Assembly (NCBI GenBank): GCA_022825895.1
Contig: JAJDVX010000042.1
Location: forward strand, 6,525 to 70,524
DNA from: Chloroflexota bacterium
Lineage (GTDB): Bacteria; Chloroflexota; UBA11872
Direction of reading: 5' to 3'
Length of the DNA stretch: 64,000 nt
Positions 4,897 to 35,092 of this stretch are shown here, piece by piece (position 1 is the first letter of the stretch; every line of letters starts with the position of its first letter). A program made the translations under genes and the position numbers. The notes beneath the pieces are model-generated. The model made no database searches. It was given only the letters and a program-made list of their open reading frames with translations, and was not told the DNA's origin.

Positions 4897-5663
4897 GCGC
4901 CAGGTTCGAGCCGGCGGACGATCGACAGGCTGCTGGCGGCGGAGGTTCGGGGATCCGGCAGCGCCATGTTGACTTCGACGCTGACCGGGCCGTCATAGTC
5001 GGATTCGACCACCGCGCGGAGCGCATCGCTGACCCAGGCTTCGTCCTGGACGCCTTCCAGCAGGCCGAGGTGCAGGTCGCTCTGGGCGTCGTTGTCGTTG
5101 ACGTGGACGTACTGGAGCCGGTCGCCGGCGGCGTCAATCGACCCGGCGACGGACTCGCCGGCGATCTGGTTATGGCCGACGTCCAAGAGCAAATGCAGGT
5201 TGGCGTGGCCGCAGGCCGTGATGAAGTCGAGGGTTTCGCGGACCGTCGGCAGACCGCGCCCGGGAAAGTGCTCGATGCCGAGGCGGACGCCGGCGCGGTG
5301 GGCATCGTCGGCCAGGGTGAGGGCCGATTCGCGGTAGGCAGCTAGCGCCAGGGCGTCAGGCGTGACGGGCGGCGCGAGGTAGACGTCGGATATGCCCAGG
5401 CTCTGGGCTTCGCGGATGCCGGCGCGGACGTGGTCCACAGCGAGCTGGCGGGCCGAGTCCTCGGTCGCGTCCAGGAGCGCACCTTCCGGCATGAGGTGAG
5501 CGACAGCCATGCAGGTGATCGGAAGCGTGCGCTCGGTGAGTTCCAGGTTGGCGTAGCCGGGGCGCACGTCGACTGACTGGAAGCCGGCTTCGGCGGCGAA
5601 GGCGGTGGCGGTGGCGGGGTCATCGGCCAGGCCCCAGAGGCAGAAGGCGACGTGCAGGCTCAT
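4893..5663 (-). CDS. Sugar phosphate isomerase/epimerase (xylose isomerase-like TIM barrel)
   Basis: Internal start MSLHVAFCLWG... of ORF 4893..6140. AP-endonuclease-2/xylose-isomerase-like TIM barrel pattern (LHLLLDVGHNQIAGE, QYVHVNDND). Ends 14 nt before the glpK stop. Confidence 0.7.
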   Translation of the reverse strand: MSLHVAFCLWGLADDPATATAFAAEAGFQSVDVRPGYANLELTERTLPITCMAVAHLMPEGALLDATEDSARQLAVDHVRAGIREAQSLGISDVYLAPPVTPDALALAAYRESALTLADDAHRAGVRLGIEHFPGRGLPTVRETLDFITACGHANLHLLLDVGHNQIAGESVAGSIDAAGDRLQYVHVNDNDAQSDLHLGLLEGVQDEAWVSDALRAVVESDYDGPVSVEVNMALPDPRTSAASSLSIVRRLEPGA

Positions 5664-5676
5664 GGGCGGCAGTCTC

Positions 5677-11548: not shown

Positions 11549-12391
11549 CTAGCGCTCGATCGGCTGGCCGATCATGGAACCCCACTCGGTCCAGGAGCCG
11601 TCGTAGTTGCGGACGTTGCCGACGCCGAGCAGTTCGTGCAGCGCGAACCAGGTGTGGGCGGAACGTTCGCCAATCCGGCAGTAGGTGATGACGGGGGCAT
11701 CGCCGGTCGCGCCGAGCGGGCCGTAGATCTCCAGTAGCTCATCGGCCGACTTGAAGGTGCCGTCCGCTTCGTTGACGGCGGTGAGCCAGGGAACGTTGTC
11801 GGCGCCGGGAATGTGTCCGCCGCGCTGTGACAGTTCCTGGAGGCCTGGCGGCGCCAGGATCTCGCCGGTGAACTCGGCGGGCGAACGCACGTCGACCAGC
11901 ACGGTGGAGCCGTCGCCAAGTGCGGCGCGGACGTCGGGCTGGAGGACGCGGAGCGAGGGGTCGGCCGTGCCGGCCTCATAGGCGGTGCGCTCGACCACGG
12001 TCTCGTCGGTGGTCAGTTCGCGGCCTTCCTGCTCCCACTTGAGCCGGCCGCCGTTCATCAGGCTCACGCGCTCGTGGCCGGCCATCTTGAACTGCCAATA
12101 GGCGAACGCGGCGAACCAGTTGTTGTTGTCGCCGTAGAGGATGACGTGGGTGTCCGCGGCGATGCCGGAGGCTTCCAGCAAATCCTTCCACTGATCCGGC
12201 GAGGCGATGTCACGCCGGACGCCATCGGAGAGCTGCGTCTCCCAATTCCAACCCACGGCGCCGGGAATGTGCCCGGAGTCGTACGAGGACGTGTCGACGT
12301 CCACCTCGACCAGGCGAACGTTGTCATCGCCGCCGTGGGCGGCGACCCAATCAGTGTCGACGAGGACGTCTGGATTCACATATTCGGCCAT
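11549..12391 (-). CDS. Thiosulfate/3-mercaptopyruvate sulfurtransferase (tandem rhodanese domains)
   Basis: 280 aa. Two rhodanese modules. Active-site CRIGERS in the second domain. Confidence 0.85.
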   Translation of the reverse strand: MAEYVNPDVLVDTDWVAAHGGDDNVRLVEVDVDTSSYDSGHIPGAVGWNWETQLSDGVRRDIASPDQWKDLLEASGIAADTHVILYGDNNNWFAAFAYWQFKMAGHERVSLMNGGRLKWEQEGRELTTDETVVERTAYEAGTADPSLRVLQPDVRAALGDGSTVLVDVRSPAEFTGEILAPPGLQELSQRGGHIPGADNVPWLTAVNEADGTFKSADELLEIYGPLGATGDAPVITYCRIGERSAHTWFALHELLGVGNVRNYDGSWTEWGSMIGQPIER

Positions 12392-20034: not shown

Positions 20035-20772
20035 ATGCGGGTCGCAGTCGTTACGGACATTCACGGCAACCGCCACGCCATGTTCGCGGTCCTGGCGGAC
20101 TTACGACGCGTTGGAGCGGACGAGGTCGTGTTTGGCGGCGACGCGGCCTTGTTCGGATCACGGCCACGCGAGTGCTGGGAGCGGGTACTGGACCTGGGCT
20201 GGCGCTGCGTGCAGGGCAATACCGACCGCTACATCGCCGACCTGCCGTCCAAGCTGGCCGCGCTCGGCGATCCCGACGGCGCGCAAGCGAGGTTTCTGCG
20301 AGCCAACGTGGCCTGGGCGGCCGAGCGGCTGGGTCCGGCCCTGGTTCGCAAGCTGGGCGCAATGCCGCGGCAGGTAAGCATCCAGTCGCCGGCCGGCGCC
20401 TTGCTGGTCGTCCACGGCTCGCCCGGCGACGACGAGACCGGCTGGAGCAGCCGCGACGACGAGGCAACCGTGGCTGCCGTAATCGGTCCCACCGAGGCGG
20501 CGGCCGTGGCGAGCGGACACACCCACACCGCCATGATCCGGCACGCCGGCCGCGTGCTGGCCGTGAACTGCGGCGCCGTGGGGCGTTCGCACGACGGACA
20601 ACCCGGCCTGGCGACCTATGCGGTCCTCGACGACGCCGCCGGCCGCTGGTCGGCCGAACTGCGGCGCGTCGACTACGACTTCAGGAGCGCCTACGCCGAG
20701 GTGAAGGCGTTTGGGGTTCCGATTCCCGATGCGTTTGCGAACACCCTGCTAACCGGCATCGCGCCAGACTGA
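20035..20772 (+). CDS. Metallophosphoesterase (calcineurin-like, YfcE/MPP family)
   Basis: 245 aa. MRVAVVTDIHGN...GDAALFG...GNTD...VVHGSPGDD...SGHTHT phosphoesterase motifs I-VI. Confidence 0.8.
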   Translation: MRVAVVTDIHGNRHAMFAVLADLRRVGADEVVFGGDAALFGSRPRECWERVLDLGWRCVQGNTDRYIADLPSKLAALGDPDGAQARFLRANVAWAAERLGPALVRKLGAMPRQVSIQSPAGALLVVHGSPGDDETGWSSRDDEATVAAVIGPTEAAAVASGHTHTAMIRHAGRVLAVNCGAVGRSHDGQPGLATYAVLDDAAGRWSAELRRVDYDFRSAYAEVKAFGVPIPDAFANTLLTGIAPD

Positions 20773-20782
20773 GCGCGCGGGT

Positions 20783-22546
20783 TTGACGCAAGAGACATCC
20801 GCGTCGGGAGGCGCCGCCGGGGAGGCAAGCGCCACGGAAAACGCGGGCTATCCGGCGTTGCGATGGCGCGGGGTCTCCGCCCTGGTCGTCACTTTGGCGC
20901 TGGCTGCCGGGCTCGCCCTCTTTATCGCCCTGATGCGCGAAGGGCGTACGACGCTGAGCGACCTGAGCGCAGCCTGGGCGATTGTGTTCGGGGTCACCTG
21001 TGCGGCCACCATGGGCTGGAACCTGGCGGTCGTGTTGCTGGTGTCGTTCGCGGCGCAGCGCCGGGTGGACGACGTGCTGACCAGCAATCTGTGGACCCAT
21101 TGGCCGCTGCTGGCGCCGGCGACGCTTGCCGTCATGGCGTTTGCCTCGGACGCCGTGAACCACCGCCTGGTCGAGACGGACGATTTGCGCTGGCTGTGGG
21201 CGGCGCCCATTGGCGTGTGGATCGCCGGCCAGGTGCTGTGGCTGCCGCTCAGTCTCGACCAGGTGCGACTCAATCCAGTGCGGGTCGTGCGCGACGCCGT
21301 GGCGGCGCTTGCCGGCGGGCGCTTCACCCGGCTGACGTTCGGTCTGATCCTGGTCCAGTTCGTCCTGCTGCGGCTGGGGCTGGCGCTGTTGTGGCGGCCA
21401 GTCGGACTGTTCGAGCGCGGCAGTGATGTTGGCGCCTACGAGCAGCGCGCCCGACTGGCGCTGCAAGGCTTGCAGCCGTACCTGGACTACTGGGTCGAAT
21501 ACCCACCCTTGTTTCCATGGATGGCTTCGGGCCTGAAGCTGCTGAGCGTGCCGCTGGGCGGCGACGAGGCCGCGTTCCAGATCTTGTTCAGCCTGGTGAT
21601 GGTCGTATTCGAGACCGGAATCCTATGGCTGATCCACGCCATCGCCGTGCGCGTGTGGGACGAGCCGCGTGGGCTGGTTACGGCCGCGGCCTACGCCGCG
21701 CTGTTCTACCCGATCTACATTGCCAACCGGCACTTCGAGTCCATTGCCGTGTTCTTCCTGCTGCTCGGGGTGTACCTGGTGATCCGGGAACGCCGGCACA
21801 CCGCCACGCTGGCCGTCGCGCTGGGCATGTTGACAAAGTTGTTCCCCGCCGCGGCGCTGCCCGGGCTCCTGGCGGGACAGTCGTGGAGATCGCGCATGCG
21901 GTATGCAGGTCTGCTGGTCGCGGCGGTAGTCGGCGCGCTTGCCCCGCTGGCCGTGGTCGGGCGCGAGTTCTTTGTGGCTTCGCTGCAAAATATGCTCCAC
22001 CGGCCGGCCTGGGAAACCCTGTGGGCCCTGGCCGACGGCTACTTTGGATTCGGCTGGATACACCGCTACCGCCAGACGCCGGAAACCGCGCTTGAGTTCA
22101 ACTACACGCCGGATATTCCAGGGGCCGCCTGGTGGGCCGCCGCCGGGCTGGTGGCGGCGCTGTACGCCGGATTGGCCCTGCGACGGTCACCGCCGAGTCC
22201 GGCGGGCGTCGTGTGGACGACGGGACTGGCCCTTGTGGCGTTTAGTCTCTATCTGCGGGGCTGGTCGCCGCAATTCATGGTCTGGCTCTTGCCGTTCGCG
22301 CTGCTGGCCTTTCCTGGTGGGCGCGGTTTTTTGATCGCGACCGGGCTGTCGGGCCTGGCCCTGCTGGAGTACCCGGTGTACTTCGTGTTGTGGTCGTACT
22401 TTCACCCGTGGTCGCTCTGGATCGTCGTCGTTCTGCGAACCCTCGCCGTGCTGGCGCTCGGCGTCGTGTTTGCGCGCCGATTGTGGCTTGAGGGGCGCTC
22501 GGCAACGCACGAATCAGCCGGCGGCTTGGATTCCGCGCATGCGTAG
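20783..22546 (+). CDS. Polytopic membrane protein, DUF2029/GT87-like (probable lipid-linked glycosyltransferase)
   Basis: 587 aa with more than 12 predicted TM helices. Central region resembles the DUF2029/GT-C fold (YPPLFPW..., LTKLFPAAALPGLLAG). Confidence 0.55.
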   Translation: MTQETSASGGAAGEASATENAGYPALRWRGVSALVVTLALAAGLALFIALMREGRTTLSDLSAAWAIVFGVTCAATMGWNLAVVLLVSFAAQRRVDDVLTSNLWTHWPLLAPATLAVMAFASDAVNHRLVETDDLRWLWAAPIGVWIAGQVLWLPLSLDQVRLNPVRVVRDAVAALAGGRFTRLTFGLILVQFVLLRLGLALLWRPVGLFERGSDVGAYEQRARLALQGLQPYLDYWVEYPPLFPWMASGLKLLSVPLGGDEAAFQILFSLVMVVFETGILWLIHAIAVRVWDEPRGLVTAAAYAALFYPIYIANRHFESIAVFFLLLGVYLVIRERRHTATLAVALGMLTKLFPAAALPGLLAGQSWRSRMRYAGLLVAAVVGALAPLAVVGREFFVASLQNMLHRPAWETLWALADGYFGFGWIHRYRQTPETALEFNYTPDIPGAAWWAAAGLVAALYAGLALRRSPPSPAGVVWTTGLALVAFSLYLRGWSPQFMVWLLPFALLAFPGGRGFLIATGLSGLALLEYPVYFVLWSYFHPWSLWIVVVLRTLAVLALGVVFARRLWLEGRSATHESAGGLDSAHA

Positions 22547-24287
22547 GTTCCCCGCCGGCATCTCGCGGCTTCGGCTGGTGCTCGGCGCGCTGGGATGGGC
22601 CAGTCTTGTTGGCATGGCGCTCGCCATGGCGAGTTCTTCGATTGGGCGAGCCGACCTCTCCGCGCCGAGCGCAGCCTGGGCGGCCGCGGCCTTCGGCAGC
22701 CTTGGCGGCGCCATCCTGGTCTGGTTCGCGATGGGCTGGCTTCGACACCGAGCCGGCCACGGGACGGACTGGAGTGGCGCCGGCCTTCCGCTGCTGGCGA
22801 CGCTGGACGGCTGGCTCATCGTGGCGTTTCAGTACGCCCATGAGCCAACCAACCATCTCCTGACCGTTGGCCTGGTGACGCCGGAACTGTTCGCTCGGCC
22901 GTCCGTGACCGAATGGCTGGCCGTCAAGTTTGTCGCCGTAGCCCTTCTGTGGGTTAGCTGGCCGTCGTTGGCCGCGCGCACGCCGCGGCGCGGACGGACG
23001 TCTCCCGTCACGTTCGGGCAGGATTACGGGATTGGCGCGCTGCCGAGCGGTGGGCTGATCGCTATCGCCGCGGTGGGAGCGCTGGCCTACCTGCGGCTGG
23101 CGCTCCTGGATGTCCTGGGCATCGAGGTGCCCTCGGATCTTCGCGTCAACTACATCGGCGCACTGGCGCTGCGAGATGGACTCAACCCCTACGACAACAC
23201 GGTTGCGCTGCAAGTTGCCGGCCGCGAGGCGATTCCCTACGTGGGCACGCGACTCTGGGCGCTGGTGACCAATCCACCGACGGCCATGCTCTACTTTGCG
23301 CCCTACACGACCATGCCGCTGGCGGCCGCACGGCTGGCATTCCTGGCCGTGAACCACCTGGCGCTGCTGGCGACCGCGGCGCTGACCTGGCGAATGGTGC
23401 GGCCGGGACTGCCCGCCCCGGTGTGGTTGGGACTCGTCCTGGGCGTCGTGGCCCTGCTCGATCCATTCTTGCTGGCGTTCCGCCTGGGGCAGGTCGACCT
23501 GGTCATCGGCCTGGCACTGGCGGCGGCGGCCTACCGACTGCGCGGCGGCGACGATGCGTGGGCCGGGGCTCTCATCGGAGTCGCGGCGATGCTGAAAATC
23601 GCGCCGGGTCTGCTGGCCCTCTACCTGCTGTGGCGCGGTCGCTGGAAGGCGCTGGCCGGCCTGGTTGTCGCGGTGGCCGCGCTTGGACTGCTGAGCCTGG
23701 GGCTCGCCGGCCCGGAGACGTGGCGCTATTACCTGACCGATCGGCTGCCCGATCTCCTGGCGGGCAGCGCGCTGTTCAACAATCTCTCGCTGCCAGGACT
23801 GATTCTGCGCGTGTTCATGGGACCCGAACTCGCCCAGGGCTTTCTGGATATGCAGCCCGAGATCGCGGTGTCGCGGATTCTGAGCGTGGTTGCCGTGCTC
23901 GCCGCGCTGGCCGTTGCGGCGAAGGCCCTGGGGCGCTCGGCGCACACCGGACGGGCGTACGTGCTGGAGTTCAGCCTGGCCGTGGTGACCGCGCTGGTGA
24001 TCAGCGGCGTCACCTGGCCGCACTACCTGGCCTGGCTGCTGCCGCTGGTCGGTCTGAGCCTCGCGTTGAGCTGGCCGACTGGCGCCAGCCGCTGGACGGC
24101 GGTCCTGTGCGGAGCCGGGCTGGCGCTGGCCTCGCTGCCGCTGGACGCCTACGGCGGGCTTTTTGGGACTATCTTTGATGTATCCATGACTGCACAATCC
24201 GTCCGCAGCCTGGGACTGCTGATGCTGTTCCTGGGACTGTTGCTGGCCGTACGCGGCGCCCGCCCGGGGTCTGAAAGCACTCCGTGA
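22539..24287 (+). CDS. Polytopic membrane protein, DUF2029/GT87-like (paralogue)
   Basis: Internal ATG at 22539 (MRRFPAGISRL...). Overlaps the upstream gene by 8 nt. DGLNPYD...LKIAPGLLALYLLWRGRW typical of DUF2029/GT87. Confidence 0.55.
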   Translation: MRRFPAGISRLRLVLGALGWASLVGMALAMASSSIGRADLSAPSAAWAAAAFGSLGGAILVWFAMGWLRHRAGHGTDWSGAGLPLLATLDGWLIVAFQYAHEPTNHLLTVGLVTPELFARPSVTEWLAVKFVAVALLWVSWPSLAARTPRRGRTSPVTFGQDYGIGALPSGGLIAIAAVGALAYLRLALLDVLGIEVPSDLRVNYIGALALRDGLNPYDNTVALQVAGREAIPYVGTRLWALVTNPPTAMLYFAPYTTMPLAAARLAFLAVNHLALLATAALTWRMVRPGLPAPVWLGLVLGVVALLDPFLLAFRLGQVDLVIGLALAAAAYRLRGGDDAWAGALIGVAAMLKIAPGLLALYLLWRGRWKALAGLVVAVAALGLLSLGLAGPETWRYYLTDRLPDLLAGSALFNNLSLPGLILRVFMGPELAQGFLDMQPEIAVSRILSVVAVLAALAVAAKALGRSAHTGRAYVLEFSLAVVTALVISGVTWPHYLAWLLPLVGLSLALSWPTGASRWTAVLCGAGLALASLPLDAYGGLFGTIFDVSMTAQSVRSLGLLMLFLGLLLAVRGARPGSESTP

Positions 24288-25132
24288 GAGAGGTCGTTCG
24301 CTCACGCGTACTGTGGGCTGCCATCGGTTCGATCACACTGGCTGTGGTTTTGCTCATCACCGTGGCCCCGGCGCGAGACATCACGCACACCGCGTTGGGC
24401 TGGCTGCGGGTGTCGCCGCTGGAGCTCGATGACGGCGACAGCCAGGCCGACGCAACGGCGCCAACCGAGGCCGCGACGCCGGCGCCGACCCTGGCCGACG
24501 TTGTTGAGATCGTGAGCGTGGATCCGACGACGTCGATCCCCGACGCAACCTCGGCGGACCTCGACGAACTTCCATTTGCGGTCATCGAGATTGATCCACC
24601 GACCACATTCGCGGACGACCCCGCGCGCAGCGTGACGAGATTCGGGACATTGACCCTGGGCCTGGACACGGCCGACCTGGCCGCGGCGCTGGCGCCCGGG
24701 TTTCCCTCGCGACGGCTCGCGCGTCGACTCGGAACGGATGAGATCACGGTCGCTGGCGGCGCCCTGGTGGTGAGCACCTGGCCGGCGAATGGAAGCGACC
24801 CGGGCGCGATAACCCTGTACCAGGTCGAGGCGCCGCTCGTCACCGGTCTTCCGCCGCGCGAATTGGAGCTGCTGGCCGAACTGATCACCCAGGCCTTCCT
24901 CCCGCCGATCATCAGCCGGGAGACCGAGGTGTTGGACATTCCCCTGGTTCGAATGGCGCTGGGACTCGAGATTGACGATGAATCGAGCCCTGCCGAACCG
25001 ACCCTCACGGAGATCCCGAGCGGGGATCCAGCCGTCATGTGGATGCGGGATCGATCGCAACTGGTCCTGACCGGCCCGCTGGCGCCCGAGGATCTGCTGC
25101 AACTGGCCGAGACTGCGAAGGTCCAGCGTTGA
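24284..25132 (+). CDS. Hypothetical membrane-anchored protein (acidic, Pro/Thr-rich)
   Basis: 282 aa. Single N-terminal TM (VLWAAIGSITLAVVLLITVA). Operonic with the ABC-2 exporter genes. Confidence 0.45.
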   Translation: MREVVRSRVLWAAIGSITLAVVLLITVAPARDITHTALGWLRVSPLELDDGDSQADATAPTEAATPAPTLADVVEIVSVDPTTSIPDATSADLDELPFAVIEIDPPTTFADDPARSVTRFGTLTLGLDTADLAAALAPGFPSRRLARRLGTDEITVAGGALVVSTWPANGSDPGAITLYQVEAPLVTGLPPRELELLAELITQAFLPPIISRETEVLDIPLVRMALGLEIDDESSPAEPTLTEIPSGDPAVMWMRDRSQLVLTGPLAPEDLLQLAETAKVQR

Positions 25133-26040
25133 GCCAGCCGGCGGCGATTTACCTGTCCGGCGTCAGCAAGCGCTACGGCGACACGCTGGCCGTCGATGAC
25201 GTCAGCCTGTCGGTTGCGCACGGCGAGGTATTCGGATTCCTCGGTCCCAACGGGGCAGGCAAGAGCACCCTGGTCAAGATGATTCTTGGCCTGACGCATC
25301 CGACCGCGGGAGAAATTGAGGTCCTGGGCCAACCGGTCGGCAGCCTGGCGGCGAGGGCGGAGGTCGGGTACCTGCCCGAGACCTTCCGGTTCCACGACTG
25401 GCTGACAGCGTCCGAGTTGCTGCACTTTCACGCACGGTTGGCGCGCGTGTCCGCTGACGTGCGAAGCCAACGTGCGCGGGAACTGCTGGAACTTGTGGGG
25501 CTGAAGGACCGGGCGAACGACCGGATTTCCACGTTTTCCAAGGGCATGATGCAGCGCGTCGGCCTGGCGCAGGCCCTGGTCGGCGAGCCGCGGCTGGTGA
25601 TCCTGGACGAGCCAACCTCGGCGCTCGATCCGATCGGTCGCCGCGACGTGCGGGACCGAATCCGGGAACTGGGCGAGCACGGCGTGACCGTCTTCCTGAA
25701 CTCCCACCTGCTGTCCGAGGTCGAGCAAGTTTGTGACCGGGTCGCCATCATCGATCACGGCTCGATCGTGGCCGAGGGCAAGCTGGACGAGCTCCTGAAC
25801 GCGCAGGAAATCGAGCTTCGCGCCGGCCAGGGCGCCGAGGCGGCTGCCCGGGAAATACTCGGCGAGGGTGGCGTACGACAGGTCAACGGACGGCTTCGCG
25901 TGCGCGTGGCCAACGATGACGAAATCGCCGGGCTCATCCGCCGCATGGTCGAAACCGGCGTGCCGGTCTACGACGTCCGGCAAATCGGCGACTCACTGGA
26001 AGACCTGTTCGTACGCGTAGCCGAACGGGGCGACGTGTGA
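25129..26040 (+). CDS. ABC transporter ATP-binding protein
   Basis: TTG start overlapping the upstream stop. Walker A GPNGAGKST, signature LSGGM-like FSKGMMQRV, Walker B LVILDEPTSALD. Confidence 0.85.
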   Translation: MSQPAAIYLSGVSKRYGDTLAVDDVSLSVAHGEVFGFLGPNGAGKSTLVKMILGLTHPTAGEIEVLGQPVGSLAARAEVGYLPETFRFHDWLTASELLHFHARLARVSADVRSQRARELLELVGLKDRANDRISTFSKGMMQRVGLAQALVGEPRLVILDEPTSALDPIGRRDVRDRIRELGEHGVTVFLNSHLLSEVEQVCDRVAIIDHGSIVAEGKLDELLNAQEIELRAGQGAEAAAREILGEGGVRQVNGRLRVRVANDDEIAGLIRRMVETGVPVYDVRQIGDSLEDLFVRVAERGDV

Positions 26041-26873
26041 GCGCCCACCTGATCGCGTTCTTCACGCTCCGGGAGGCCCTGCGGCGCCGCGTGGTACTGG
26101 CGGCCGCATTGCTGACGCTCGGCTACCTGGTGCTCTACGGGGTCGGGGTGTGGTTCGGGTACCGCGACCTGCAAGAGACCCAGGGCGGGCCGCCGGGACT
26201 GACTGAAGGCGTCGTAAGCCTGATGCTGGTGGGCGGCTTGTGGAGCCTCAACTTCATCGCCTCGGTGCTCGCCGTCTTTCTCTCCGTAGGCGCCCTGTCG
26301 GGCGAAGTGGACCAGGGCACCCTGCACGCCATTGCCGCCCGACCGGTCCGCCGCAGTGAGATCGTGCTCGGAAAGTTCGTCGGATTCACGTTGATGCTCG
26401 CGGTTTTCATCGGCGTGTCGGCAAGCCTGATGATCCTGATCGTGGCCGTGATCACCGGCGAGATCGTCGGCGGCAGTTGGGCCGGTCCGTTCCTGATGCT
26501 GCTGGCCGCGATGCTGCTGATCGGCCTGGCGCTGGCGGGAAGCTCGCGACTGAGCGCGCTGCCGAATGGCGTGATCGTGTTCACGCTCTATGCCACCGCG
26601 TTGATCGGCGGCGTGATCGAGCAGATCGGCGACGTGCTCGAAAGCGCCGTGATGTTCAACATCGGCGTCTTCAGCAGCGTGCTCGTGCCGACCCGGGCCA
26701 TGTGGGACATGGCCAGCGCCCAACTGGCAACCGGCGGATTCGCCGGCGAACTCAGCGCGGGGCCGTTCGGCGCCAGCAACCCGCCGTCCGGCTGGATGCT
26801 GCTGATCGCCTTTCTTCACCTCGCGCTGACTCTCGGATTCGCCCTGCGAGCCTTTGAGCGCCGCGACTTCTAG
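26037..26873 (+). CDS. ABC-2 family transporter permease
   Basis: 278 aa, about 6 TM helices. Overlaps the ATPase stop. Confidence 0.7.
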   Translation: MSAHLIAFFTLREALRRRVVLAAALLTLGYLVLYGVGVWFGYRDLQETQGGPPGLTEGVVSLMLVGGLWSLNFIASVLAVFLSVGALSGEVDQGTLHAIAARPVRRSEIVLGKFVGFTLMLAVFIGVSASLMILIVAVITGEIVGGSWAGPFLMLLAAMLLIGLALAGSSRLSALPNGVIVFTLYATALIGGVIEQIGDVLESAVMFNIGVFSSVLVPTRAMWDMASAQLATGGFAGELSAGPFGASNPPSGWMLLIAFLHLALTLGFALRAFERRDF

Positions 26874-26918: not shown

Positions 26919-28190
26919 ATGGCAGCTGACCTGCGTATCGCGCTGATCGGGTGTGGAAGTCACGGATCGACCCGCCTGGCGCCGGCGGTCTGGCATACAG
27001 CCGGCGTAGCCCTGAGCGCCTGCGTCGATGTGAACACGGAAGCCGCACGCAAGACGGCCCACGGCGCGGCCGACGTGCTGACCAGCGTCGAAGCCTTGAC
27101 GGCCGAGTCGTACGCCGACGCGGCAGTTATCGCCGTTCCGCACGACGAGTTGGTCCCAACCACGCGGGCCTGCATTGAAGCCGGCCTGCACGTCTTGGTT
27201 GAGAAGCCCGCAGGTCTGAATGCGGCCGAAGTGACCGAAGTCGTTGAGACCGCGCACGCCCGAGACGTGACCTTTATGCCCGCGTACTGCCTGCGCTTCA
27301 ACCAGGTGCGCACCCGCGCACGCAACCTGGTTCAACGTGGCGTGGTCGGCAACATCCGTACCCTGGCAGCCGCCAAGGGCAGCCCACCGCTGCCGGGCTG
27401 GCTGGCCGATCCGGAGCGCGGCGGCGGGCAGTTGCTGTTCCTTGGCTCCCACCTGGTCGACCAATTGCTGTGGTTGCACCGCCAACCGGTCGTTCGCGCC
27501 TACGCTCACATGACGTTTCGCGACGACACCGGCAGCGACGAGTCGATTTCCGGCGTCATCGAGTTCGCCGACGGCGTCAGCGCCACCATCAGCTTGAGCC
27601 AGGCGGCCGGCGTTGCCTACGACCACCTGGAGATCACCGGCGACCGCGGGCGGATCCGTTCCGACTGGAAGACCGGCCAGATCGACGTTGAAAGCTCCAG
27701 CGCTCACGAGTACCGGCTTCCCACCACTGAGTTTGTGCAGTCGGACCTGCTGCAGCCGATGTACGACGCCGAGATGGCGGAATTCGCCGCCGCGGTGCAC
27801 ATGGGCCGCCCGCCCAGCGTGGACGGGCACGATGCCGTCCGCACCCTGCGGGTTCTGGACGCGCTTCGAGAGTCCGCCGCGCGTGGAGCGCCGGTGGCTG
27901 TTGAGGATGAGGTGCACGGCGTCGCCCGACGACTGGCCGACCACGGCCCGGCGCGGATTCGAATCCAGCTCACGTACCCGTCCGATCGCATTCAGGAGCC
28001 GATCCTCTACGAATTAGCGCGCCGCTTTCACTTGAAGTTCAACGTTCGTCGGGCCGACATCGACGCCGGCATCGGCTGGGTTCAGCTGATGTTGGAAGGC
28101 GAACGCTCCGAAATCGAAGCCGCCATCGAATGGGTCGAGGCACAGGGCATTCGCGCCGATCCGGTTGAAGGCGACGTCGTCAGCGGCTGA
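26919..28190 (+). CDS. Gfo/Idh/MocA oxidoreductase fused to a C-terminal NIL domain
   Basis: N-terminal IALIGCGSHG Rossmann region plus Gfo/Idh/MocA C-domain. The last ~80 aa (RIRIQLTYPSDRIQEPILYELARRFHLKFNVRRADIDAGIGWVQLMLEGERSEIEAAIEWVEAQGI) align well with the MetN C-terminal NIL domain. Confidence 0.75.
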   Translation: MAADLRIALIGCGSHGSTRLAPAVWHTAGVALSACVDVNTEAARKTAHGAADVLTSVEALTAESYADAAVIAVPHDELVPTTRACIEAGLHVLVEKPAGLNAAEVTEVVETAHARDVTFMPAYCLRFNQVRTRARNLVQRGVVGNIRTLAAAKGSPPLPGWLADPERGGGQLLFLGSHLVDQLLWLHRQPVVRAYAHMTFRDDTGSDESISGVIEFADGVSATISLSQAAGVAYDHLEITGDRGRIRSDWKTGQIDVESSSAHEYRLPTTEFVQSDLLQPMYDAEMAEFAAAVHMGRPPSVDGHDAVRTLRVLDALRESAARGAPVAVEDEVHGVARRLADHGPARIRIQLTYPSDRIQEPILYELARRFHLKFNVRRADIDAGIGWVQLMLEGERSEIEAAIEWVEAQGIRADPVEGDVVSG

Positions 28191-28195
28191 GCGGC

Positions 28196-29293
28196 CTAGC
28201 TGCCGACGCCCGCGATCCGGCGGTAAAAGGCGGCCGTAGCGTTGGCGACGGCCCGGGTGGTGTAGCGCCGGACCACGTGAGCCCGACCGGCCTGTGCGAG
28301 TTGCTCGCGGCGAGCCCGGTCGGCGCGCAGACCCATGAGAACGTCTGCCAGCGCATGCGCGTCCGCCGGCGGCGTCACCAGGCCAGCCTGGGCGACCACG
28401 TGCGGAAGCTCGCCGCTGGCGGACACGACCGTCGGCACGCCGCAGGCCATGGCCTCAACCGCGGCGCGGCCGAACTGCTCGGTCCAGCCGGGCCGACCCA
28501 CCGTCGGCAGCACAAACACATCCAGGCCGTTGTAGAACGCCGGCATGTCGGCGCTGGGAATCACGCCCTCGAACGCGACGCCCGCCATGGCGGCTGACAT
28601 GCGGCGCAGGTCGGGCTCGGCGGGTCCGGTTCCGGCAAGCCGCAGCGTCACGTCGCCGCCAATGGATCCAACCGCCCGGATCAGGACGTCCACGCCTTTG
28701 GCCTCGACCAGCCGGCCCGCGTAGCCAACCACGAACCGGTCCGGGTCCCGCGGCCGCGAGCGAGGCGCGAACAGCTCCGGATCAACGCCAAATTGCGGGA
28801 TCACCTCGATTCGGCGCGTGTGACCCTTGCGCCGCAGCACATCGCCCGCGGCCTCGCTTCCCACGATGGCGTCGGCCCGCGCAAGCACATAGCGCTCCAG
28901 CCAGCGAAACGGCGGCGGATAGCGCCGGTACAGGTTCTGCCAGGCGAAGAAGACCGGACGAATCCCGTAGCGCTCGGCGTCCCGGCAGGCAATGGCCGTG
29001 GCCAGGTTGTAGGGCTCCTCGTCGATGTGGAGCACGTCCGGGCGAAAGCGGCGCACAATCTGGCGCAGCCGGCGGAACCAGAACAAGTGGTAGCGCCCAT
29101 TCAGGGCCAGCGGGGTGTAGCTGATCTCGTAGCCACGGGGAGGTGGACGCTCGGCAATCTGTGAGCGACCCTGCTCAATCCAGCGGTCCGGCGAGACCGC
29201 CAGCAGGTCCAGATCCGGGTTGGCCCCCAGCGCGCGGAGTTTGTCGTGATGCGCGCCAACAACCAGCGCCTTGGACGCAAGCAGGATTCTCAT
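28196..29293 (-). CDS. Glycosyltransferase family 4
   Basis: Internal start MRILLASKALVVG. GT4 C-domain EGFG-like motif (VLPTVGRPGWTEQFGRAAVEAMACGVPTV). Confidence 0.85.
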   Translation of the reverse strand: MRILLASKALVVGAHHDKLRALGANPDLDLLAVSPDRWIEQGRSQIAERPPPRGYEISYTPLALNGRYHLFWFRRLRQIVRRFRPDVLHIDEEPYNLATAIACRDAERYGIRPVFFAWQNLYRRYPPPFRWLERYVLARADAIVGSEAAGDVLRRKGHTRRIEVIPQFGVDPELFAPRSRPRDPDRFVVGYAGRLVEAKGVDVLIRAVGSIGGDVTLRLAGTGPAEPDLRRMSAAMAGVAFEGVIPSADMPAFYNGLDVFVLPTVGRPGWTEQFGRAAVEAMACGVPTVVSASGELPHVVAQAGLVTPPADAHALADVLMGLRADRARREQLAQAGRAHVVRRYTTRAVANATAAFYRRIAGVGS

Positions 29294-30201
29294 GCCGCCA
29301 CCTGCCGATAGACGGCGTGGGTGAGTTCCGCCGTGTGCGACCAGGGAAACAACGCGGCCCGCGCAAGACCGCGCTCGCGCAGGTCGCTGGCCAGTCCGGG
29401 GTTGGTGGCGATGGCCGTAATGGCTTCCGCCCACGCCGCCGAATCGACGGGGGAGAGCAGGCGACCTGCGTCGCCGACCACTTCCGGCAGGGACGTGGCG
29501 TTGGCCGCGACGACCGGCACGCCGCTGGCCAGGGCTTCGAGCGGGTCGAGTCCAAAGCCCTCATAGCGAGAGGGAAACACAAACACGTCCGCGGCCCGAT
29601 AGAGATCCGGCTTGTCGCGCTCGTCGACCGGACCAACGATGCGCAGCCAGGAGTCGGAACTCGGATCGAGATCACGGAACCAGTCCACGTAGACCCGGCT
29701 GCCCGGCCGGGGAGCGCGTCCGGCAACCACCAGGGGCAGACGGCAAGCGCGCCAGACGGCGGGCCACGCCTCCAACACCACTCCCAGATTCTTGCGCAGG
29801 TCTCGAGTGCTCAGGAAGAGCGCGAAGCGGTCCGGGAGGCCGAGCCGCTGGCCCGCCGCCGCCCGCGCCGCCGCGTCGCCGGGCCGAAACCGATCATCGA
29901 CGCCCAGCGGAATTACGCGGACTCGATCCGAGGGCACGCCTGCCAGCCTGGCGAGATCGTGACGGGTCCATTCGGAGTCGGCAATCAAGGTCCGGGCGCG
30001 CTGCAGGGCCGCCTTCACCAACCAGAAGTAGAGAACCTGGCCTCGACCCGAGGCGTACGCCGGCAATGCCAGCGGAATCAGGTCGTGTACCGTCACCACG
30101 GCCCGCGGAGCGATCAGCGGCGGCGCCAGATAGGGCACATGCCCCAGCGCTCCGCGTATCCGCCTGGGCCACACGGCCTGCTCCCACGCCACCTTGCCCA
30201 A
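29290..30201 (-). CDS. Glycosyltransferase family 4, N-terminally short; no canonical start upstream
   Basis: 303 aa from a TTG. Has VVTVHDLIPL and EGFGLDPLEALASGVPVV. The frame stays open a further 55 codons upstream to the plsY stop. See findings. Confidence 0.65.
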   Translation of the reverse strand: MGKVAWEQAVWPRRIRGALGHVPYLAPPLIAPRAVVTVHDLIPLALPAYASGRGQVLYFWLVKAALQRARTLIADSEWTRHDLARLAGVPSDRVRVIPLGVDDRFRPGDAAARAAAGQRLGLPDRFALFLSTRDLRKNLGVVLEAWPAVWRACRLPLVVAGRAPRPGSRVYVDWFRDLDPSSDSWLRIVGPVDERDKPDLYRAADVFVFPSRYEGFGLDPLEALASGVPVVAANATSLPEVVGDAGRLLSPVDSAAWAEAITAIATNPGLASDLRERGLARAALFPWSHTAELTHAVYRQVAA

Positions 30202-30366
30202 CTGGCCGCTCAGCGCCTGCGGCGGTTCGATCTCGTTGACCGCGAGGTTGGGATATCCGTTCCGCAGCGCGTGAACCAGTGAATCCAGGTATTGGCCCGA
30301 GCCCGTGTCCGGGAAGCGCCGGAAGTAGGCGTTGAATGCGACGCGCAGCGCCTGGGCCTCGCGCCG

Positions 30367-31005
30367 TTACTCGTGCACGTTGACGCCGAAACGTCGATAC
30401 AAGCCGAGCGCCATGGCGTCGTCCGGGCTGGTTCGCCGCTTCAACTCAAGCAGCCCGCCCAAGACCGCGCCCCAGATCGCGTAGATCCACCACAAGTCGG
30501 GCTGCCCGAACAGCGCGTAGAGACCAAAGACGGCCGGGAGCAGCGCGTGTACCGTGGGAGTTGCGTCGGTCGTCCGGCGTCGCGGCAGCAACGCCACCAG
30601 CCAGATCCCCAGGCAAACGGCCCAGATGGCGGGTTGCGCCACGAGCAGCCCGAAGCCCATGGTCGTCGTTCCGCGGCTCCCACGAAAACGCACGAAGACC
30701 TGCCACATGCTCCCCGTGGTCACCGCGGTGATGGCGATAAGTTCGACCACCGGTTCGTTGGGCGCCAGCGCCCGCGCCAGCAGCACCGACGAGGCGGCGG
30801 CGGCCACGTTCCACAGCAAGGCAATGACGGCTGGCAGCTTGCCGGCTCGGAAGAAGGTGTTCTGAATGCCCAGGTTGCCCGATCCGGTGTTGCGCAAGTC
30901 CGATCGCTTGAGAATTGCGGTGGCGAGCAGCGCCGCCGGTACGCTGCCAATCAGGTAGGCGATCACGCCTACGAGGGCGTACGTTGGGATGTGTTCAGGG
31001 TTCAA
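30367..31005 (-). CDS. plsY: Glycerol-3-phosphate acyltransferase PlsY
   Basis: 212 aa. GSGNLG motif and VFVRFRGSRGTTT (the FKGGKGVAT equivalent). About 5 TM helices. Confidence 0.8.
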   Translation of the reverse strand: MNPEHIPTYALVGVIAYLIGSVPAALLATAILKRSDLRNTGSGNLGIQNTFFRAGKLPAVIALLWNVAAAASSVLLARALAPNEPVVELIAITAVTTGSMWQVFVRFRGSRGTTTMGFGLLVAQPAIWAVCLGIWLVALLPRRRTTDATPTVHALLPAVFGLYALFGQPDLWWIYAIWGAVLGGLLELKRRTSPDDAMALGLYRRFGVNVHE

Positions 31006-31029
31006 CGCGGGCGCTCCGCCGCATTCTAG

Positions 31030-32205
31030 CTAGCAGCCTCGGCTCGCGCCGCCGACCACCGGCTGGGGCGGTCCGGCCGCGGCCTCCCGGTAGACGCCGA
31101 TCAGGCGCTGCGCGGACCGGCGCCAGGAAAAGTCCCACCGTCGCTTGTGTCCTCGCTCGACCAGGTCTTTTCGAATCGCCTCGTCCGTCAACAACCTGAC
31201 CAGACCCTCGGCAACCGCCTCCGGATTCTTCTGATCCACAACCAGGGCGGCGCGAGCCGCCACTTCCGTTGTGGCCGGCGTATCGGACGTCAGCACGGGA
31301 CATCCGCAGGCGAGAGCTTCCAGGATCGTGATACCAAAGCCCTCGCCATGGCTTGGATAGGCGTAAACGGACGCCAGGGAATAGAGCGCCCGGAGGGTCC
31401 GGTCGTCAACTCGTCCCAGGAATCGGACGCGGTCGCCGGCCTGCGCAATGGCCGAATAGACGCCGTCGCAGAGCCAGCCTTCGGCGCCGGCGTGCACGTG
31501 CTGGATGGCGGGACTACCAACTCGCTGTGAAGCGAGGGCCACGGCTCGCGCCAGGCCTTCGATGTTCTTGCGCGGCTGGATGGTGCCGACGGAAAGCACG
31601 AAATGTTCCGGCAACTCCAATTGCCTCCGCACCGCGCGCAGTTCGTCCGGATCAGCGATTGGACCGAACCAGTCCGGTACGGCGTTTGGTACCACGCGAA
31701 TCCGATGGGGGCGCACCCCGTAGCGCTGCATCAGGTCGCGCTTGGTGGCCTCCGAGACGGCGATGACCAGTCGGGCGCGATCAATCGACCTGGGCACGGC
31801 GCGTTCCAGGAAGCGGCGCTGCCGCGGATGCGCGTCCTGCGGGCGCACGACGTACGAAAGATCGTGCACGGTGAGCACGCCGTGGGCAGCCAGCAGCGGC
31901 GGAAGGGTGAAGTCGGGACCGTGGAATACCCGGGCCCGGCCGGCAATCGCCTCGGCCGGCAGCGGAGCTCGCGCCTTGAACCAGGTCGCCAGCGCAACGC
32001 GCGGTGACACCGGAATGCGGCGAACCCGGACGCGTTCATGCACGGCCAGGGCATCCGCTTCCCGCGACGGCCCGCGACGCGTATAGACGAGCGTGAGGTC
32101 GGGGCGGTCGGGTTCAACCACCAGCGCGTTGACCAACTCACGCACCGAGCGGCCAATCCCGGCCTGCTGCGTCGCGGCGGCGGTGATGTCGATCGCGACG
32201 CGCAT
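31030..32205 (-). CDS. Glycosyltransferase family 4
   Basis: Internal start MRVAIDITAA. GT4 C-domain SHGEGFGITILEALACGCPVLTSD. Confidence 0.85.
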   Translation of the reverse strand: MRVAIDITAAATQQAGIGRSVRELVNALVVEPDRPDLTLVYTRRGPSREADALAVHERVRVRRIPVSPRVALATWFKARAPLPAEAIAGRARVFHGPDFTLPPLLAAHGVLTVHDLSYVVRPQDAHPRQRRFLERAVPRSIDRARLVIAVSEATKRDLMQRYGVRPHRIRVVPNAVPDWFGPIADPDELRAVRRQLELPEHFVLSVGTIQPRKNIEGLARAVALASQRVGSPAIQHVHAGAEGWLCDGVYSAIAQAGDRVRFLGRVDDRTLRALYSLASVYAYPSHGEGFGITILEALACGCPVLTSDTPATTEVAARAALVVDQKNPEAVAEGLVRLLTDEAIRKDLVERGHKRRWDFSWRRSAQRLIGVYREAAAGPPQPVVGGASRGC

Positions 32206-32207
32206 GG

Positions 32208-33233
32208 CTAGCGGCGCTTGAGGCGCGTGAGGGCGAACAACAGGCCGCCGGTCAGGATGACCGACCAATACGTGATGACCCTATCGACAATCGCCACCGC
32301 CCCGGCCACGCCGCCGCCCACGCCAATCAGCCGCATCAGCCCCAGCAGACCGCCCTCAACCGCACCCAGGCCACCTGGGGTCGGGACGGCAAGCAGCAAT
32401 GATGCCGCCGTACCCACAAATACGATCTCGGCCGGATTCAGCTCCAGTCCAAGCGCCCGCATCACGATGGCCAGACGCACCATCTCAATCGACCAGATCG
32501 CAAAGCTGGCCAGCCACAGGAATGGCCCCGTGCGCCAGGTCCAGCTGTCAAAGACGCCGCTGTGAAAGCGTTCGTAGATCGCCGCAGCCGACTGTGGCAA
32601 CCGCGCGAAAATCGGCGTGCCGAATCCCAGCAGAAACAGCACGCCCAACGCCAGCACCGCCAGCGCCAGCGCCGCGACGGCCAGGATGCGTCCCACCTCC
32701 TCGCTGGTCTCGGGTGACCTGGCAATCCAAGCCGCCGACGCCATGACCATGACGATCAGTGCGCCTACGTCGAACACGCGCTCCGAAAAGATGGTGCCCA
32801 GCGTGCGGGTGAGCGACGTTCCATAATTCGCTCGCGCCATATAGGCCCGATAAATGTCGCCCAGCTTGGCTGGCACCACGCCGTTCACGAACCACGAGAT
32901 GTAGAGAATCTGCGCCAGATCGCGCATTCGGTAGTTCGGGGTCACGTCTTCCCGGTGCGCCGCGTTGGTCAGCAGGATTCGCCACCGGAGCGTGCGAATC
33001 GGGAAGGTGAGCGCAAAGGCGATGTAGGCCAGGACGATCAGCCACGGATCGGCTGACCGGATCCGCGCCACGATGTCCTCGAGCCGCAGGTCGGCCAGAA
33101 TCCAGGCAAGCGCCAGCAGCACTCCGGCCACCAGGAAGCTGCCAAGGGTTCGCGCACTGAGAAACCGCCGACGCAGATCAGTCCGCGAGGGGTCCACGAC
33201 CGACTCGGCTGCTTCTGGTCGGGTGTCGGTCAC
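32208..33233 (-). CDS. Flippase-like / lysylphosphatidylglycerol-synthase TM-region family membrane protein (UPF0104)
   Basis: 341 aa, about 8 TM helices. PIRTLRWRILL motif characteristic of the LPG_synthase_TM/flippase-like family. Confidence 0.6.
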   Translation of the reverse strand: MTDTRPEAAESVVDPSRTDLRRRFLSARTLGSFLVAGVLLALAWILADLRLEDIVARIRSADPWLIVLAYIAFALTFPIRTLRWRILLTNAAHREDVTPNYRMRDLAQILYISWFVNGVVPAKLGDIYRAYMARANYGTSLTRTLGTIFSERVFDVGALIVMVMASAAWIARSPETSEEVGRILAVAALALAVLALGVLFLLGFGTPIFARLPQSAAAIYERFHSGVFDSWTWRTGPFLWLASFAIWSIEMVRLAIVMRALGLELNPAEIVFVGTAASLLLAVPTPGGLGAVEGGLLGLMRLIGVGGGVAGAVAIVDRVITYWSVILTGGLLFALTRLKRR

Positions 33234-35092
33234 GCCACGGCCCGTTCGACACCAGGGGCCGAATCGCGCGGCTGTCCGGGAACGACCAGCGCCAGCGCAA
33301 GCAGCAGAGCAAACACTATTCCCATTCCGCTCACGTAGAGACTGTCAACCAGATTGTGGATGGCAAAGCCGACCAGGGCGCCCAGCGCGCCAACGGCGCT
33401 CCACTCGAACGCCGTGCCGCGCGCTCGGCGGACCGCGGCCACGGCGCTTCCAAACGCCCACAGGCTGAGGCCGGCAAACATGAGCATGCCAGGCAAACCG
33501 GCCTCGGCGCCGAAGTTCAGCGGGACATTGTGCGCATGGCCAAGCGGTTCGTCGAAGGGTTGCACCGCGAAGGCGCGATAGGCATCGTCAAAGTTCCCGG
33601 CGCCGACGCCGAGCAGCGGCCGGTCCTGGAACATCCGCCAGCCGGCCGCCCAGTGTGCCGTGCGCTGGGCGATGGCGAAGTCGTCATGGGCGCGGTGACG
33701 CACGACGTCGTCTACCGGATGTTCGCCCTGCAACGTTCGTTCAACGTCCGGCGGCAACAGGCGATCGAACTCTCCGCCGAAGGACGCGACCACCGCGACC
33801 AGCACCGCGGCGGCGCCAAGCGCCAGAAGGCCGCGCTTCCAAGGCGTCTCCAGGCGTCCGGCCGCCAGCGCCACCACCAGTGAACTGGCGCCAATGCCAA
33901 TCCAGGCGCCTCGTGATCGGCTGGCGACGATCGCCATCAATATGACAATTCCCAACAGAACCAGCCAGCGCCGCCGCGAACCGCGCGCATAAACCGCCGC
34001 GGCCAGAATGAGCGGTACGTGGACTCCGAGATACCCCCCAAAGGGGTTCGGCTGATCAAAGGTCCCGAATGCGCGCAGGACACCGCCGACGACGAGTCCG
34101 GCCGGGCCGACCGCGGCCGCTGTTTGCACCAGTCCCAGACCAGCCTGAAGCAGCAAGGCCGCGGCGACAGCCCAGGCCACGATTCGGCGGCTGGAGGAAT
34201 CGCGCATGAGGTCGGTGAGGATCAGCAGCGCCACGGCAATCTGGATCCACTTCAGGACTTCCTTGAGCACCAGCGCCGGATTCACCGCCGCCACGGCTGT
34301 CACCACCAGCCAGCCGGCAAAGACCAGCAGGCCAAGCGTGTACGTCGGGAGGTGCGCGCGGGCTCGGGCGCCGCGTCCAAAGATCCAGACCGACAACGCA
34401 CCGAGCAGCAGGACGTCAGTCGCCCCGAAGGCAACGCCGCTGATCTGCACCTCGGCCAGTCCGCGAAACGGTACGGCAGCCAGGGCCAGCGCGGTCAGCA
34501 CAGCCGCGACCACTCGCGCGTCGAACACGGGAACGACCAGGCGAATGATTGCCGCCGCGACGGCCGCGAGCAGGATCAACGCGAGCGCGAGCGTCGGCAA
34601 CGGACCCGCGGTCACGGCGGCCAGGGCAAGTCCCACGACAGCCAGGCAGACTGCCGCCGATCCAGGCCCGGCGGACCAGATCACCCGACCGGGCGCGAAA
34701 CGCGGAGAATCGACCAGGCGGCTTGCGCCCGACGGCGCCCCTCGAGCGCGCCACAGCACTGCCGCGACTGTCAGGGGACCGACCAGCACGAGGCACGCGG
34801 CCGCAACGAGAAGCCCGACCTGCACCAGAACGCCGGTGATACCCAGCGTCAGCGCGGCGGCCGCCAGCGCAAGTTCCAGCCGGCGCCGACGGGCGCGCCG
34901 CAGTCCAAGCCCCAGCAAGGCGGCGGCGGCCAGCAGCGCCGCGGCGGCCAGCGGGATCACGCGGACCCAAGGCACGTCATGCGCGGCCAGCGCCATCGGC
35001 ACAATGACCGGAAGCGCGACGAGCGACAGGGCGCCGCCGAACATCGCGGGTCGCAAGCCAGAGCTCGAACGCGTCCGGTTCAATGCGGTCAC
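33230..35092 (-). CDS. O-antigen ligase/polymerase family membrane protein (Wzy_C)
   Basis: 620 aa, polytopic. FDQPNPFGGYL...ASRSRGAWIG periplasmic-loop motifs of the Wzy_C family. About 200 extra N-terminal TM residues. Confidence 0.75.
   Translation of the reverse strand: MTALNRTRSSSGLRPAMFGGALSLVALPVIVPMALAAHDVPWVRVIPLAAAALLAAAALLGLGLRRARRRRLELALAAAALTLGITGVLVQVGLLVAAACLVLVGPLTVAAVLWRARGAPSGASRLVDSPRFAPGRVIWSAGPGSAAVCLAVVGLALAAVTAGPLPTLALALILLAAVAAAIIRLVVPVFDARVVAAVLTALALAAVPFRGLAEVQISGVAFGATDVLLLGALSVWIFGRGARARAHLPTYTLGLLVFAGWLVVTAVAAVNPALVLKEVLKWIQIAVALLILTDLMRDSSSRRIVAWAVAAALLLQAGLGLVQTAAAVGPAGLVVGGVLRAFGTFDQPNPFGGYLGVHVPLILAAAVYARGSRRRWLVLLGIVILMAIVASRSRGAWIGIGASSLVVALAAGRLETPWKRGLLALGAAAVLVAVVASFGGEFDRLLPPDVERTLQGEHPVDDVVRHRAHDDFAIAQRTAHWAAGWRMFQDRPLLGVGAGNFDDAYRAFAVQPFDEPLGHAHNVPLNFGAEAGLPGMLMFAGLSLWAFGSAVAAVRRARGTAFEWSAVGALGALVGFAIHNLVDSLYVSGMGIVFALLLALALVVPGQPRDSAPGVERAVA

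Follow-up and report, generated by a model that had tools for sequence, protein, structure and literature searches.

ACT domains regulate dehydrogenases, SerA being an example. The NIL domain is known from the C-terminal C2 domain of the ATP-binding cassette (ABC) protein MetN; in MetNI, an antiparallel sheet that runs between the subunits and is centred on A299 is stabilised by ligand in one register and shifts by two residues without it, and the MetN residues N295 and A299 are part of the methionine/dimer interface (PMC6233128). A NIL domain on a non-ABC enzyme has been reported for L-aspartate-semialdehyde sulfurtransferase (L-ASST), in its ferredoxin subunit, where methionine feedback was proposed (bioRxiv 10.1101/2025.02.10.637553). 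Here we describe a further setting for this domain, in a stretch of 64,000 nucleotides from a Chloroflexota bacterium (contig JAJDVX010000042.1 of assembly GCA_022825895.1, positions 6,525 to 70,524; hereafter the window, whose GC content is high, at about 0.67–0.68). The last gene of a plus-strand operon in it (26919..28190, +, ATG start) encodes a 423-residue protein, GFO-NIL, in which a GFO/IDH/MocA oxidoreductase carries a C-terminal NIL domain that we tentatively read as a sensor acting on the enzyme to which it is attached.

The domain content of GFO-NIL was established with Pfam. Residues 5–122 (26931..27284, +) form the NAD(P)-binding Rossmann domain (PF01408 GFO_IDH_MocA, 61.7 bits), with the GCGSHG and EKP motifs and the K96 codon at 27204–27206. 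Residues 133–328 (27315..27902, +) form the C-terminal alpha/beta domain for substrate and oligomerisation, matched by GFO_IDH_MocA_C3 (PF22725, residues 133–247, 79.4 bits) and GFO_IDH_MocA_C (PF02894, residues 136–328, 66.2 bits); it carries GGGQLLFLGSHLVD, and the H178 codon lies at 27450–27452. With a GxGxxG-containing Rossmann domain and an alpha/beta domain that both pass the Pfam thresholds, the protein is a member of the GFO/IDH/MocA family. A flexible, weakly conserved linker follows (residues 331–345; 27909..27953, +), and the NIL domain occupies residues 346–423 (27954..28187, +). The first-pass annotation had proposed exactly this fusion, with NIL in residues ~340–423, and the profile search bears it out: PF09383 matches residues 348–412 with 50.0 bits (E 2.8e-13), the cutoff being 24. 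The equivalent of MetN N295 is N375 (codon 28041–28043), that of A299 is A379, the MetN site residues being taken from PMC6233128, and the core RRADIDAGIGW spans residues 377–387 (28047–28079). No ABC_tran domain is found in the protein, the N-terminal 330 residues of which are GFO/IDH/MocA by Pfam.

Structural models agree with the profiles. A full-length AlphaFold model computed with 30 family members as input has a mean predicted local distance difference test score (pLDDT) of 86.9, with a confident oxidoreductase body and disorder at residues 333–343 of the linker, where pLDDT is below 50. Both in this model and in one of the NIL domain alone (AF2, pLDDT 85), residues 345–415 adopt a beta-alpha-beta-beta-alpha-beta order. 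The best 11 fold matches of the NIL-only model in the PDB are all MetN C2/NIL domains (TM 0.69–0.80), and ACT domains are the next (E about 1e-3 to 1e-2). No Pfam ACT family is matched in GFO-NIL at E <= 0.1, so that the likeness to ACT is one of fold; judged from the models, the NIL domain may work in an ACT-like manner, yet it is not a member of the ACT family. Pcc1, the top PDB match of the NIL region by sequence, was rejected: the match consists of two weak stretches of 12 bits, and the fold search is led by MetN C2.

A survey of the architecture, which the first-pass annotation had called for together with one of its neighbourhood, indicates that the fusion is common to a whole family. 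A homologue search with the fusion protein over about 5.8 billion proteins yielded about 50 clusters (formed at 90% identity) of proteins with these four Pfam domains, 417–427 residues long and 46–99% identical to the query; beyond these, identity falls to 44% or less and the proteins are 331–353 residues long and without NIL. Genuine NIL-less relatives, such as P0062 (Actinomycetota) and P0055, lie in unrelated contexts. With one genome scanned for each GTDB species, the NIL clade of the fusion was found in 34 genomes, all labelled as Chloroflexota or Chloroflexi metagenome-assembled genomes and some of them closed chromosomes, such as OZ242271.1 and OY764080.1, and NIL is in frame with the oxidoreductase body in 33/33 loci that have upstream sequence, closed chromosomes included. 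We considered whether an error of sequencing or of assembly, or the loss of a stop codon, had joined a GFO gene to an adjacent gene for a stand-alone NIL. Stand-alone NILs of nearly identical sequence type do exist and one family member does have a frameshift, but the continuous frame in every assessable species-level genome and the uniform length of the clusters already refute this, and we give it practically no weight. The fusion is genuine, conserved and confined to one Chloroflexota lineage.

The frameshifted member, P0054 (L005, 10001–11274), had first appeared to be a NIL-less orthologue in the same operon, called as a protein of 372 residues. It was rejected as such: it is in reality a frameshifted GFO-NIL on a contig of 7x coverage, with NIL intact in another frame. 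Domain-architecture counts from low-coverage metagenome calls therefore need caution.

The kinship of the NIL domain was examined with a NIL-only profile in an exhaustive HMMER search of 1.84 billion representatives, which gave 697 matches at E <= 1e-3. The fusion family is a single representative among them (P0047), and lengths were tallied for the other 149 best matches: 62 have at most 90 residues, 62 have 91–130, 21 have 131–200 (mostly tandem NIL-NIL proteins), 3 have 201–330 and 1 exceeds 400, with none in the range of 331–400 residues expected for MetN. A Pfam census of 149 sequences (148 of these best matches plus P0047) detected NIL in all and ABC_tran in none (0/149); the partner domains among these best NIL relatives are ThiS (5), PALP, Prok-JAB, ArsR-type HTH_5, TetR_N and a few others. 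The sequence left out, P0180 (2530 residues, E 3e-13, 10 short NIL-like stretches), is a filamin with CH domains and was discarded as a repeat-driven false positive.

Scores and alignments place the domain in the same way. The C2 domain of E. coli MetN scores 28.4 bits on the family NIL profile, against 56–126 bits (median 63) for the best 149 relatives, and it is 27% identical to the window NIL with 4 gap positions, whereas the stand-alone protein P0126 and the ThiS-NIL protein P0160 align gap-free at 41% and 43% identity. The score of the window NIL is 101.7 bits on a profile for which 48 stand-alone NILs, and no other sequences, were used. Judged by these comparisons, the domain is not of the ABC-ATPase branch and belongs to a clade of portable modules tied to sulfur-carrier/sulfur-amino-acid systems and transcription factors; the fusions of its nearest kin to ThiS, Prok-JAB, PALP and ArsR- or TetR-type helix-turn-helix domains are the behaviour of a portable ligand-binding module. 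The "MetN-type" label of the first-pass annotation thus holds only at the level of the Pfam family and fails at the level of nearest relatives. Every NIL met in our PDB searches is the C-terminal domain of MetN or of a MetN-like protein, which explains how the impression arose.

The clade itself (P0122–P0269) is large and apparently unstudied. Besides stand-alone NILs of ~80 residues it includes proteins with NIL-NIL in tandem and others in which NIL is fused to ThiS, Prok-JAB or PALP. P0126 is encoded on three contigs (L050–L052, at about 4100–6300) in an operon PALP-ThiS-NIL. Where amino-acid synthesis depends on a sulfur carrier, NIL may serve it as a sensor or adaptor.

Within the fusion family, NIL is the best-conserved segment of the protein: among 15 diverse members the mean pairwise identity is 71% in NIL, as against 53% in the Rossmann domain, 52% in the C-terminal enzyme domain and 24% in the linker. 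In the distant species L029–L041 no other segment of the operon is as well conserved: identity to the window is 65–74% for NIL, 59–64% for the ATPase and 57–59% for the permease of the neighbouring transporter, 42–59% for the oxidoreductase body and 30–35% for a 282-residue protein encoded next to that transporter. The motif RRAD[IV]D[AG]GIGW has no exception in 34 species, and A379 is invariant in the 35 family sequences (the window and 34 loci), in which position 375 is Asn in 24 and Asp in 11. The EKP lysine and the GGG...H histidine are the catalytic pair of GFO/IDH/MocA enzymes. K96 is retained in 32/33 species and H178 in 33/34, which suggests that the oxidoreductase is probably active in most members. 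In the lineage of P0052, P0053 and L029 (L029 4987–6234) both are replaced, EKP having become ERP and GSHLVD having become AVETID, and in P0051 EKP has become ETP, with loss of K96; NIL is intact in all three of P0051, P0052 and P0053. A first alignment had pointed to widespread loss of catalytic residues; this was toned down, as, of the 34 species representatives, the L029 lineage alone has altered K96/H178.

Directly upstream of GFO-NIL in the window lies a three-gene ABC module of the NosFY type. Its first gene (24284..25132, +) encodes the 282-residue protein, which has no Pfam or NCBIfam match and has a hydrophobic N-terminal segment that, by inspection, we read as a putative membrane anchor; it stands directly upstream of the ATPase across loci, at 30–95% identity. 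The ATPase (25129..26040, +, 303 residues, with a TTG start that overlaps the upstream stop codon) is of the NosF/DrrA class: it matches TIGR01188 drrA over the entire length of the model (233 bits), its residues 6–300 align with NosF (7o0y_B, E 7e-52), much as they do with Rv1218c and 4yer, there is a weak DrrA1-3_C match, and its homologues have 303–304 residues. The ABC-2 permease (26037..26873, +, 278 residues, PF12679, 49.7 bits) has a start that overlaps the ATPase stop by 4 nucleotides, and its sole PDB relative is NosY (full length, E 0.005). A gap of 45 nucleotides separates it from GFO-NIL; no terminator was predicted between the two, in a promoter and terminator scan whose counts were at chance level.

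This neighbourhood had suggested to the first-pass annotation that a regulatory module was moved onto GFO-NIL from an ATPase that now lacks one. We know of no NIL domain in a NosF/DrrA-class ATPase, and the ATPase indeed has none here; from its end-to-end alignment with NosF and drrA it nevertheless has the C-terminal domain typical of its class. That domain fills the position equivalent to NIL, which speaks against the possibility that NIL docks under the adjacent ABC-2 ATPase dimer and gates export by ligand, as a detached form of MetN trans-inhibition. The arrangement itself speaks for such trans-regulation, as the module is directly upstream in 30/32 assessable species with a short gap and no predicted terminator, and so do the stronger conservation of NIL than of the enzyme body and its retention in P0051, P0052 and P0053, which lost at least the EKP lysine. 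At L040 and L041 (species) and the related contigs L044 and L045, however, the module is absent: GT87 is followed directly by GFO-NIL, no ABC module occurs within 12–21 kb, the remaining synteny is intact over 21 kb, and both NIL and the glycan cluster are kept, NIL unchanged. Together with the absence of ABC_tran from the best NIL relatives, these loci make trans-regulation decidedly unlikely, and the origin of the domain by transfer from the adjacent ATPase is not supported, given its non-ABC kin, the class of the ATPase and the same four loci. In this operon the NosFY-like ABC-2 module is optional, an insert rather than an obligatory partner of NIL. It resembles an insertion/deletion cassette and is absent in the P0042/UBA6622 clade.

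Because NIL is unchanged at the loci that have no transporter, the constant partner of GFO-NIL is the glycan cluster rather than the transporter. An envelope-glycan operon lies downstream of GFO-NIL in 31/34 loci (L027 ends at NIL, and none was detected in L028), both membrane glycosyltransferase genes upstream are syntenic in all clades, the synteny of the glycan cluster holds with or without the ABC module, and the gene arrangement is maintained down to 46% identity.

By sequence and fold searches, residues 1–330 are closest to sugar and cyclitol oxidoreductases, at 17–26% identity: 1,5-anhydro-D-fructose reductase, GFOR, GenD2, KanD2, glucuronide 3-dehydrogenase, inositol dehydrogenases and DgpA. 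The score reached no NCBIfam equivalog cutoff, the best being IolG TIGR04380 with 123.5 bits against 355 and all others falling far below. The residue four before the catalytic His is Phe174 and not Asp, likewise in the clade and in the NIL-less P0055, P0057, P0062 and P0063. We infer from the context that the body serves an envelope glycoconjugate, either by forming or reducing a keto-sugar or with a cyclitol as its substrate. An ordinary NIL-less GFO/IDH/MocA paralogue of 347 residues is encoded elsewhere in the window (3853–4896, +), near FGGY sugar kinases (480–1991 and 5677–7149), so the genome also has conventional members of the family.

Given these results, we propose that NIL is a cis-acting sensor and dimerisation module that modulates the oligomeric oxidoreductase when a small ligand binds, a sulfur amino acid being the most plausible one. 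We hold this tentatively, at a probability of roughly 45%. In outline, a cytoplasmic NAD(P) oxidoreductase of the sugar or cyclitol type, encoded in a cluster by which an uncultured Chloroflexota lineage would make an envelope glycan or glycolipid, would have captured a NIL of the stand-alone type at its C-terminus through a flexible linker. Like the C2 domains of MetN, two NILs of the oligomer would come together by their beta2 edge strands, at a site where RRAD[IV]D, Ala379 and Asn or Asp at 375 are kept. A small ligand at the NIL–NIL interface could then alter the pairing and with it the quaternary state or activity of the oxidoreductase; judged from the partners of the NIL clade, the most plausible candidate is methionine or another sulfur amino acid akin to it. 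The supply of keto-sugar or modified-sugar precursors would in this way be tied to metabolic status. That the domain is reused as a ligand sensor on an enzyme was the other suggestion of the first-pass annotation, and it is compatible with all the evidence and is the best explanation of it, although the mechanism is one that we infer.

Several observations weigh against this proposal. The linker is disordered and unconserved, so that tight allosteric coupling between NIL and the body is not obvious. At the position of MetN N295, 11/35 sequences have Asp, and the beta2-beta3 hairpin is 4 residues shorter than that of MetN, and the methionine site of MetN may therefore not be preserved. NIL persists in the members with replaced catalytic residues; P0051, P0052 and P0053 may be pseudo-enzymes, in which case the role of NIL would be independent of catalysis. 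Nor does the window supply a sulfur context of its own: there is no Rfam match to a riboswitch or any other RNA anywhere in it, and its only sulfur-related gene is a rhodanese, with no methionine or sulfur-carrier gene besides.

Retention of NIL where catalytic residues are lost would also be expected if the domain served oligomerisation or scaffolding independently of any ligand, for example by joining dimers into tetramers or by holding the enzyme in a membrane-bound glycan-assembly complex. Dimers of NIL/C2 domains do form by way of edge strands (PMC6233128), the clade has many tandem NIL-NIL proteins, and a flexible linker suits such a role. We nonetheless regard it as rather unlikely: the invariant, charged, surface-type RRADxD and the conserved Asn/Asp at the position of MetN N295 resemble a binding site more than they do a simple interface, and NILs of the same clade are fused to helix-turn-helix domains of transcription factors, as is typical of sensors.

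Other fusions of this clade allow a further reading. Clade NILs are joined to ThiS, to the JAMM protease and to PALP, and one operon has the order PALP-ThiS-NIL; read as a Rosetta-stone pattern, and with GFO enzymes generating keto-sugars (family knowledge, with which the fold matches agree), this could mean that NIL recruits a ThiS-type thiocarboxylate to the keto-sugar of the oxidoreductase to give a thiosugar of the envelope glycan. A feedback sensor accounts equally well for these fusions, and neither the window nor the 20-kb loci that we examined contain a ThiS, ThiF, JAMM or PALP gene, which leaves docking of a sulfur carrier very improbable. The window also holds no second NIL copy and no MetNIQ genes. 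A broader idea, that the stand-alone type of NIL is an undescribed docking or sensing part of ThiS-type systems and that the fusion couples surface-glycan synthesis to sulfur-amino-acid status, with thiocarboxylate recruitment and a thiosugar as its stronger version, is in our view a long shot.

The remaining genes of the neighbourhood were assigned with Pfam. The operon of GFO-NIL begins, among the genes listed, with a Metallophos gene (20035–20772, +), followed by a GT87-like membrane glycosyltransferase (20783–22546, +, PF09594, 22 bits) and a GT87 membrane glycosyltransferase (22470–24287, +, PF09594, 112 bits), which precede the ABC module. The convergent envelope-glycan operon (28196..35092, −) comprises, in order of coordinate and all on the minus strand, GT4 (28196–29434), GT4 (29290–30201), PlsY (30367–31005), GT4 (31030–32268), LPG_synthase_TM (32208–33233) and Wzy_C (33230–35092), with GT9 and WecG/TagA genes beyond it. 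The first two GT4 open reading frames overlap by 145 nucleotides; the homologues of the first have 358–365 residues, and its true start is for this reason probably internal to the 412-residue reading frame.

The rhodanese has two domains (11549–12391, −) and lies about 14.5 kb upstream of GFO-NIL beside SBP_bac_5 genes, with a similarly placed counterpart in L001 (1892–2734). Further along, an island of low GC content (49967–53795, +; 0.54 at 50–52 kb, where about 0.67 is usual in the rest of the window) encodes McrC (444 residues, PF10117, 201 bits) and a McrB-like AAA_5 ATPase of 873 residues that has a He_PIG Ig domain at its N-terminus, and is probably a horizontally acquired restriction module of the McrBC type.

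If the NIL tail is a sensor, GFO-NIL would be the second case, after the NIL-ferredoxin of L-ASST, of a NIL domain that controls an enzyme and not a transporter, and the first link between NIL and the synthesis of cell-envelope glycans. Its practical reach is limited, the lineage being uncultured. More useful, as a by-product, is that the close relatives of this NIL are mostly uncharacterised proteins of 80 residues and forms fused to ThiS, JAMM or PALP, which point to an unstudied component of sulfur-carrier-dependent amino-acid pathways. A full-text literature search returned six papers in which the NIL domain is mentioned, none of them on a GFO-NIL fusion or on stand-alone NIL proteins, and public records name the fusion family only as "Gfo/Idh/MocA family oxidoreductase", "predicted dehydrogenase" or "hypothetical protein". 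The architecture thus appears to be undescribed, while both of its ingredients have precedents, namely a NIL on an enzyme that is not a transporter and a C-terminal ferredoxin-like regulatory domain on a dehydrogenase.

Compared with the C2 domain of E. coli MetNI (PDB 3DHW, 3DHX, 3TUZ and 6CVL), the window NIL has the same Pfam family, PF09383, the same fold, the same place as a C-terminal appendage, and Asn and Ala at the positions of N295 and A299. It differs in sitting on an oxidoreductase rather than on an ABC ATPase, in its long disordered linker and in the low identity given above. GFO-NIL falls outside the MetN-type architecture of ABC_tran plus NIL on three defining features: it has no ABC_tran domain, its closest relatives are not of that type, and it shows no dependence on a cognate ABC transporter, NIL being unchanged at loci without the module, which is itself of the NosFY/DrrA and not of the MetNI class. 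The stand-alone, tandem and ThiS-, JAMM- or PALP-fused NILs are nearest in sequence, aligning without gaps over the whole domain including the DP[VI]EGDVV tail, and have the NIRRA.V...GW core in common with it; their contexts are those of sulfur carriers or amino acids, whereas the window NIL is in an envelope-glycan cluster on a GFO enzyme. The L-ASST NIL-ferredoxin (MA1822-type) is alike in that a non-ABC redox protein carries the NIL, with its proposed methionine feedback, and differs in having a 4Fe-4S ferredoxin partner in place of a GFO Rossmann enzyme and in serving another pathway.

The ACT-regulated dehydrogenases, such as the 3-phosphoglycerate dehydrogenase SerA of E. coli and homoserine dehydrogenase, resemble GFO-NIL in having a C-terminal, ferredoxin-like, ligand-binding domain that pairs across subunits; the NIL model matches the ACT domains of 1yba and 1sc6 with TM 0.65–0.67 and that of 6dzs with TM 0.56. 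They belong to a different dehydrogenase superfamily, and in GFO-NIL the regulation is proposed. With the GFO oxidoreductases (2GLX 1,5-anhydro-D-fructose reductase, GFOR, GenD2, glucuronide 3-dehydrogenase and inositol 2-dehydrogenase) the protein shares the two-domain fold (TMt up to 0.88), GxGxxG, EKP and the GGG...H histidine, but none of the 50 fold matches listed exceeds 386 residues or has a NIL tail. Finally, the adjacent module recalls the ABC-2 systems NosDFY and DrrAB, its order of accessory protein, ATPase and permease mirroring nosD-nosF-nosY with the 282-residue gene in the position of NosD; it differs from NosDFY in that this accessory protein has no match to NosD or any other Pfam family and in that the module is dispensable at the locus in some species.

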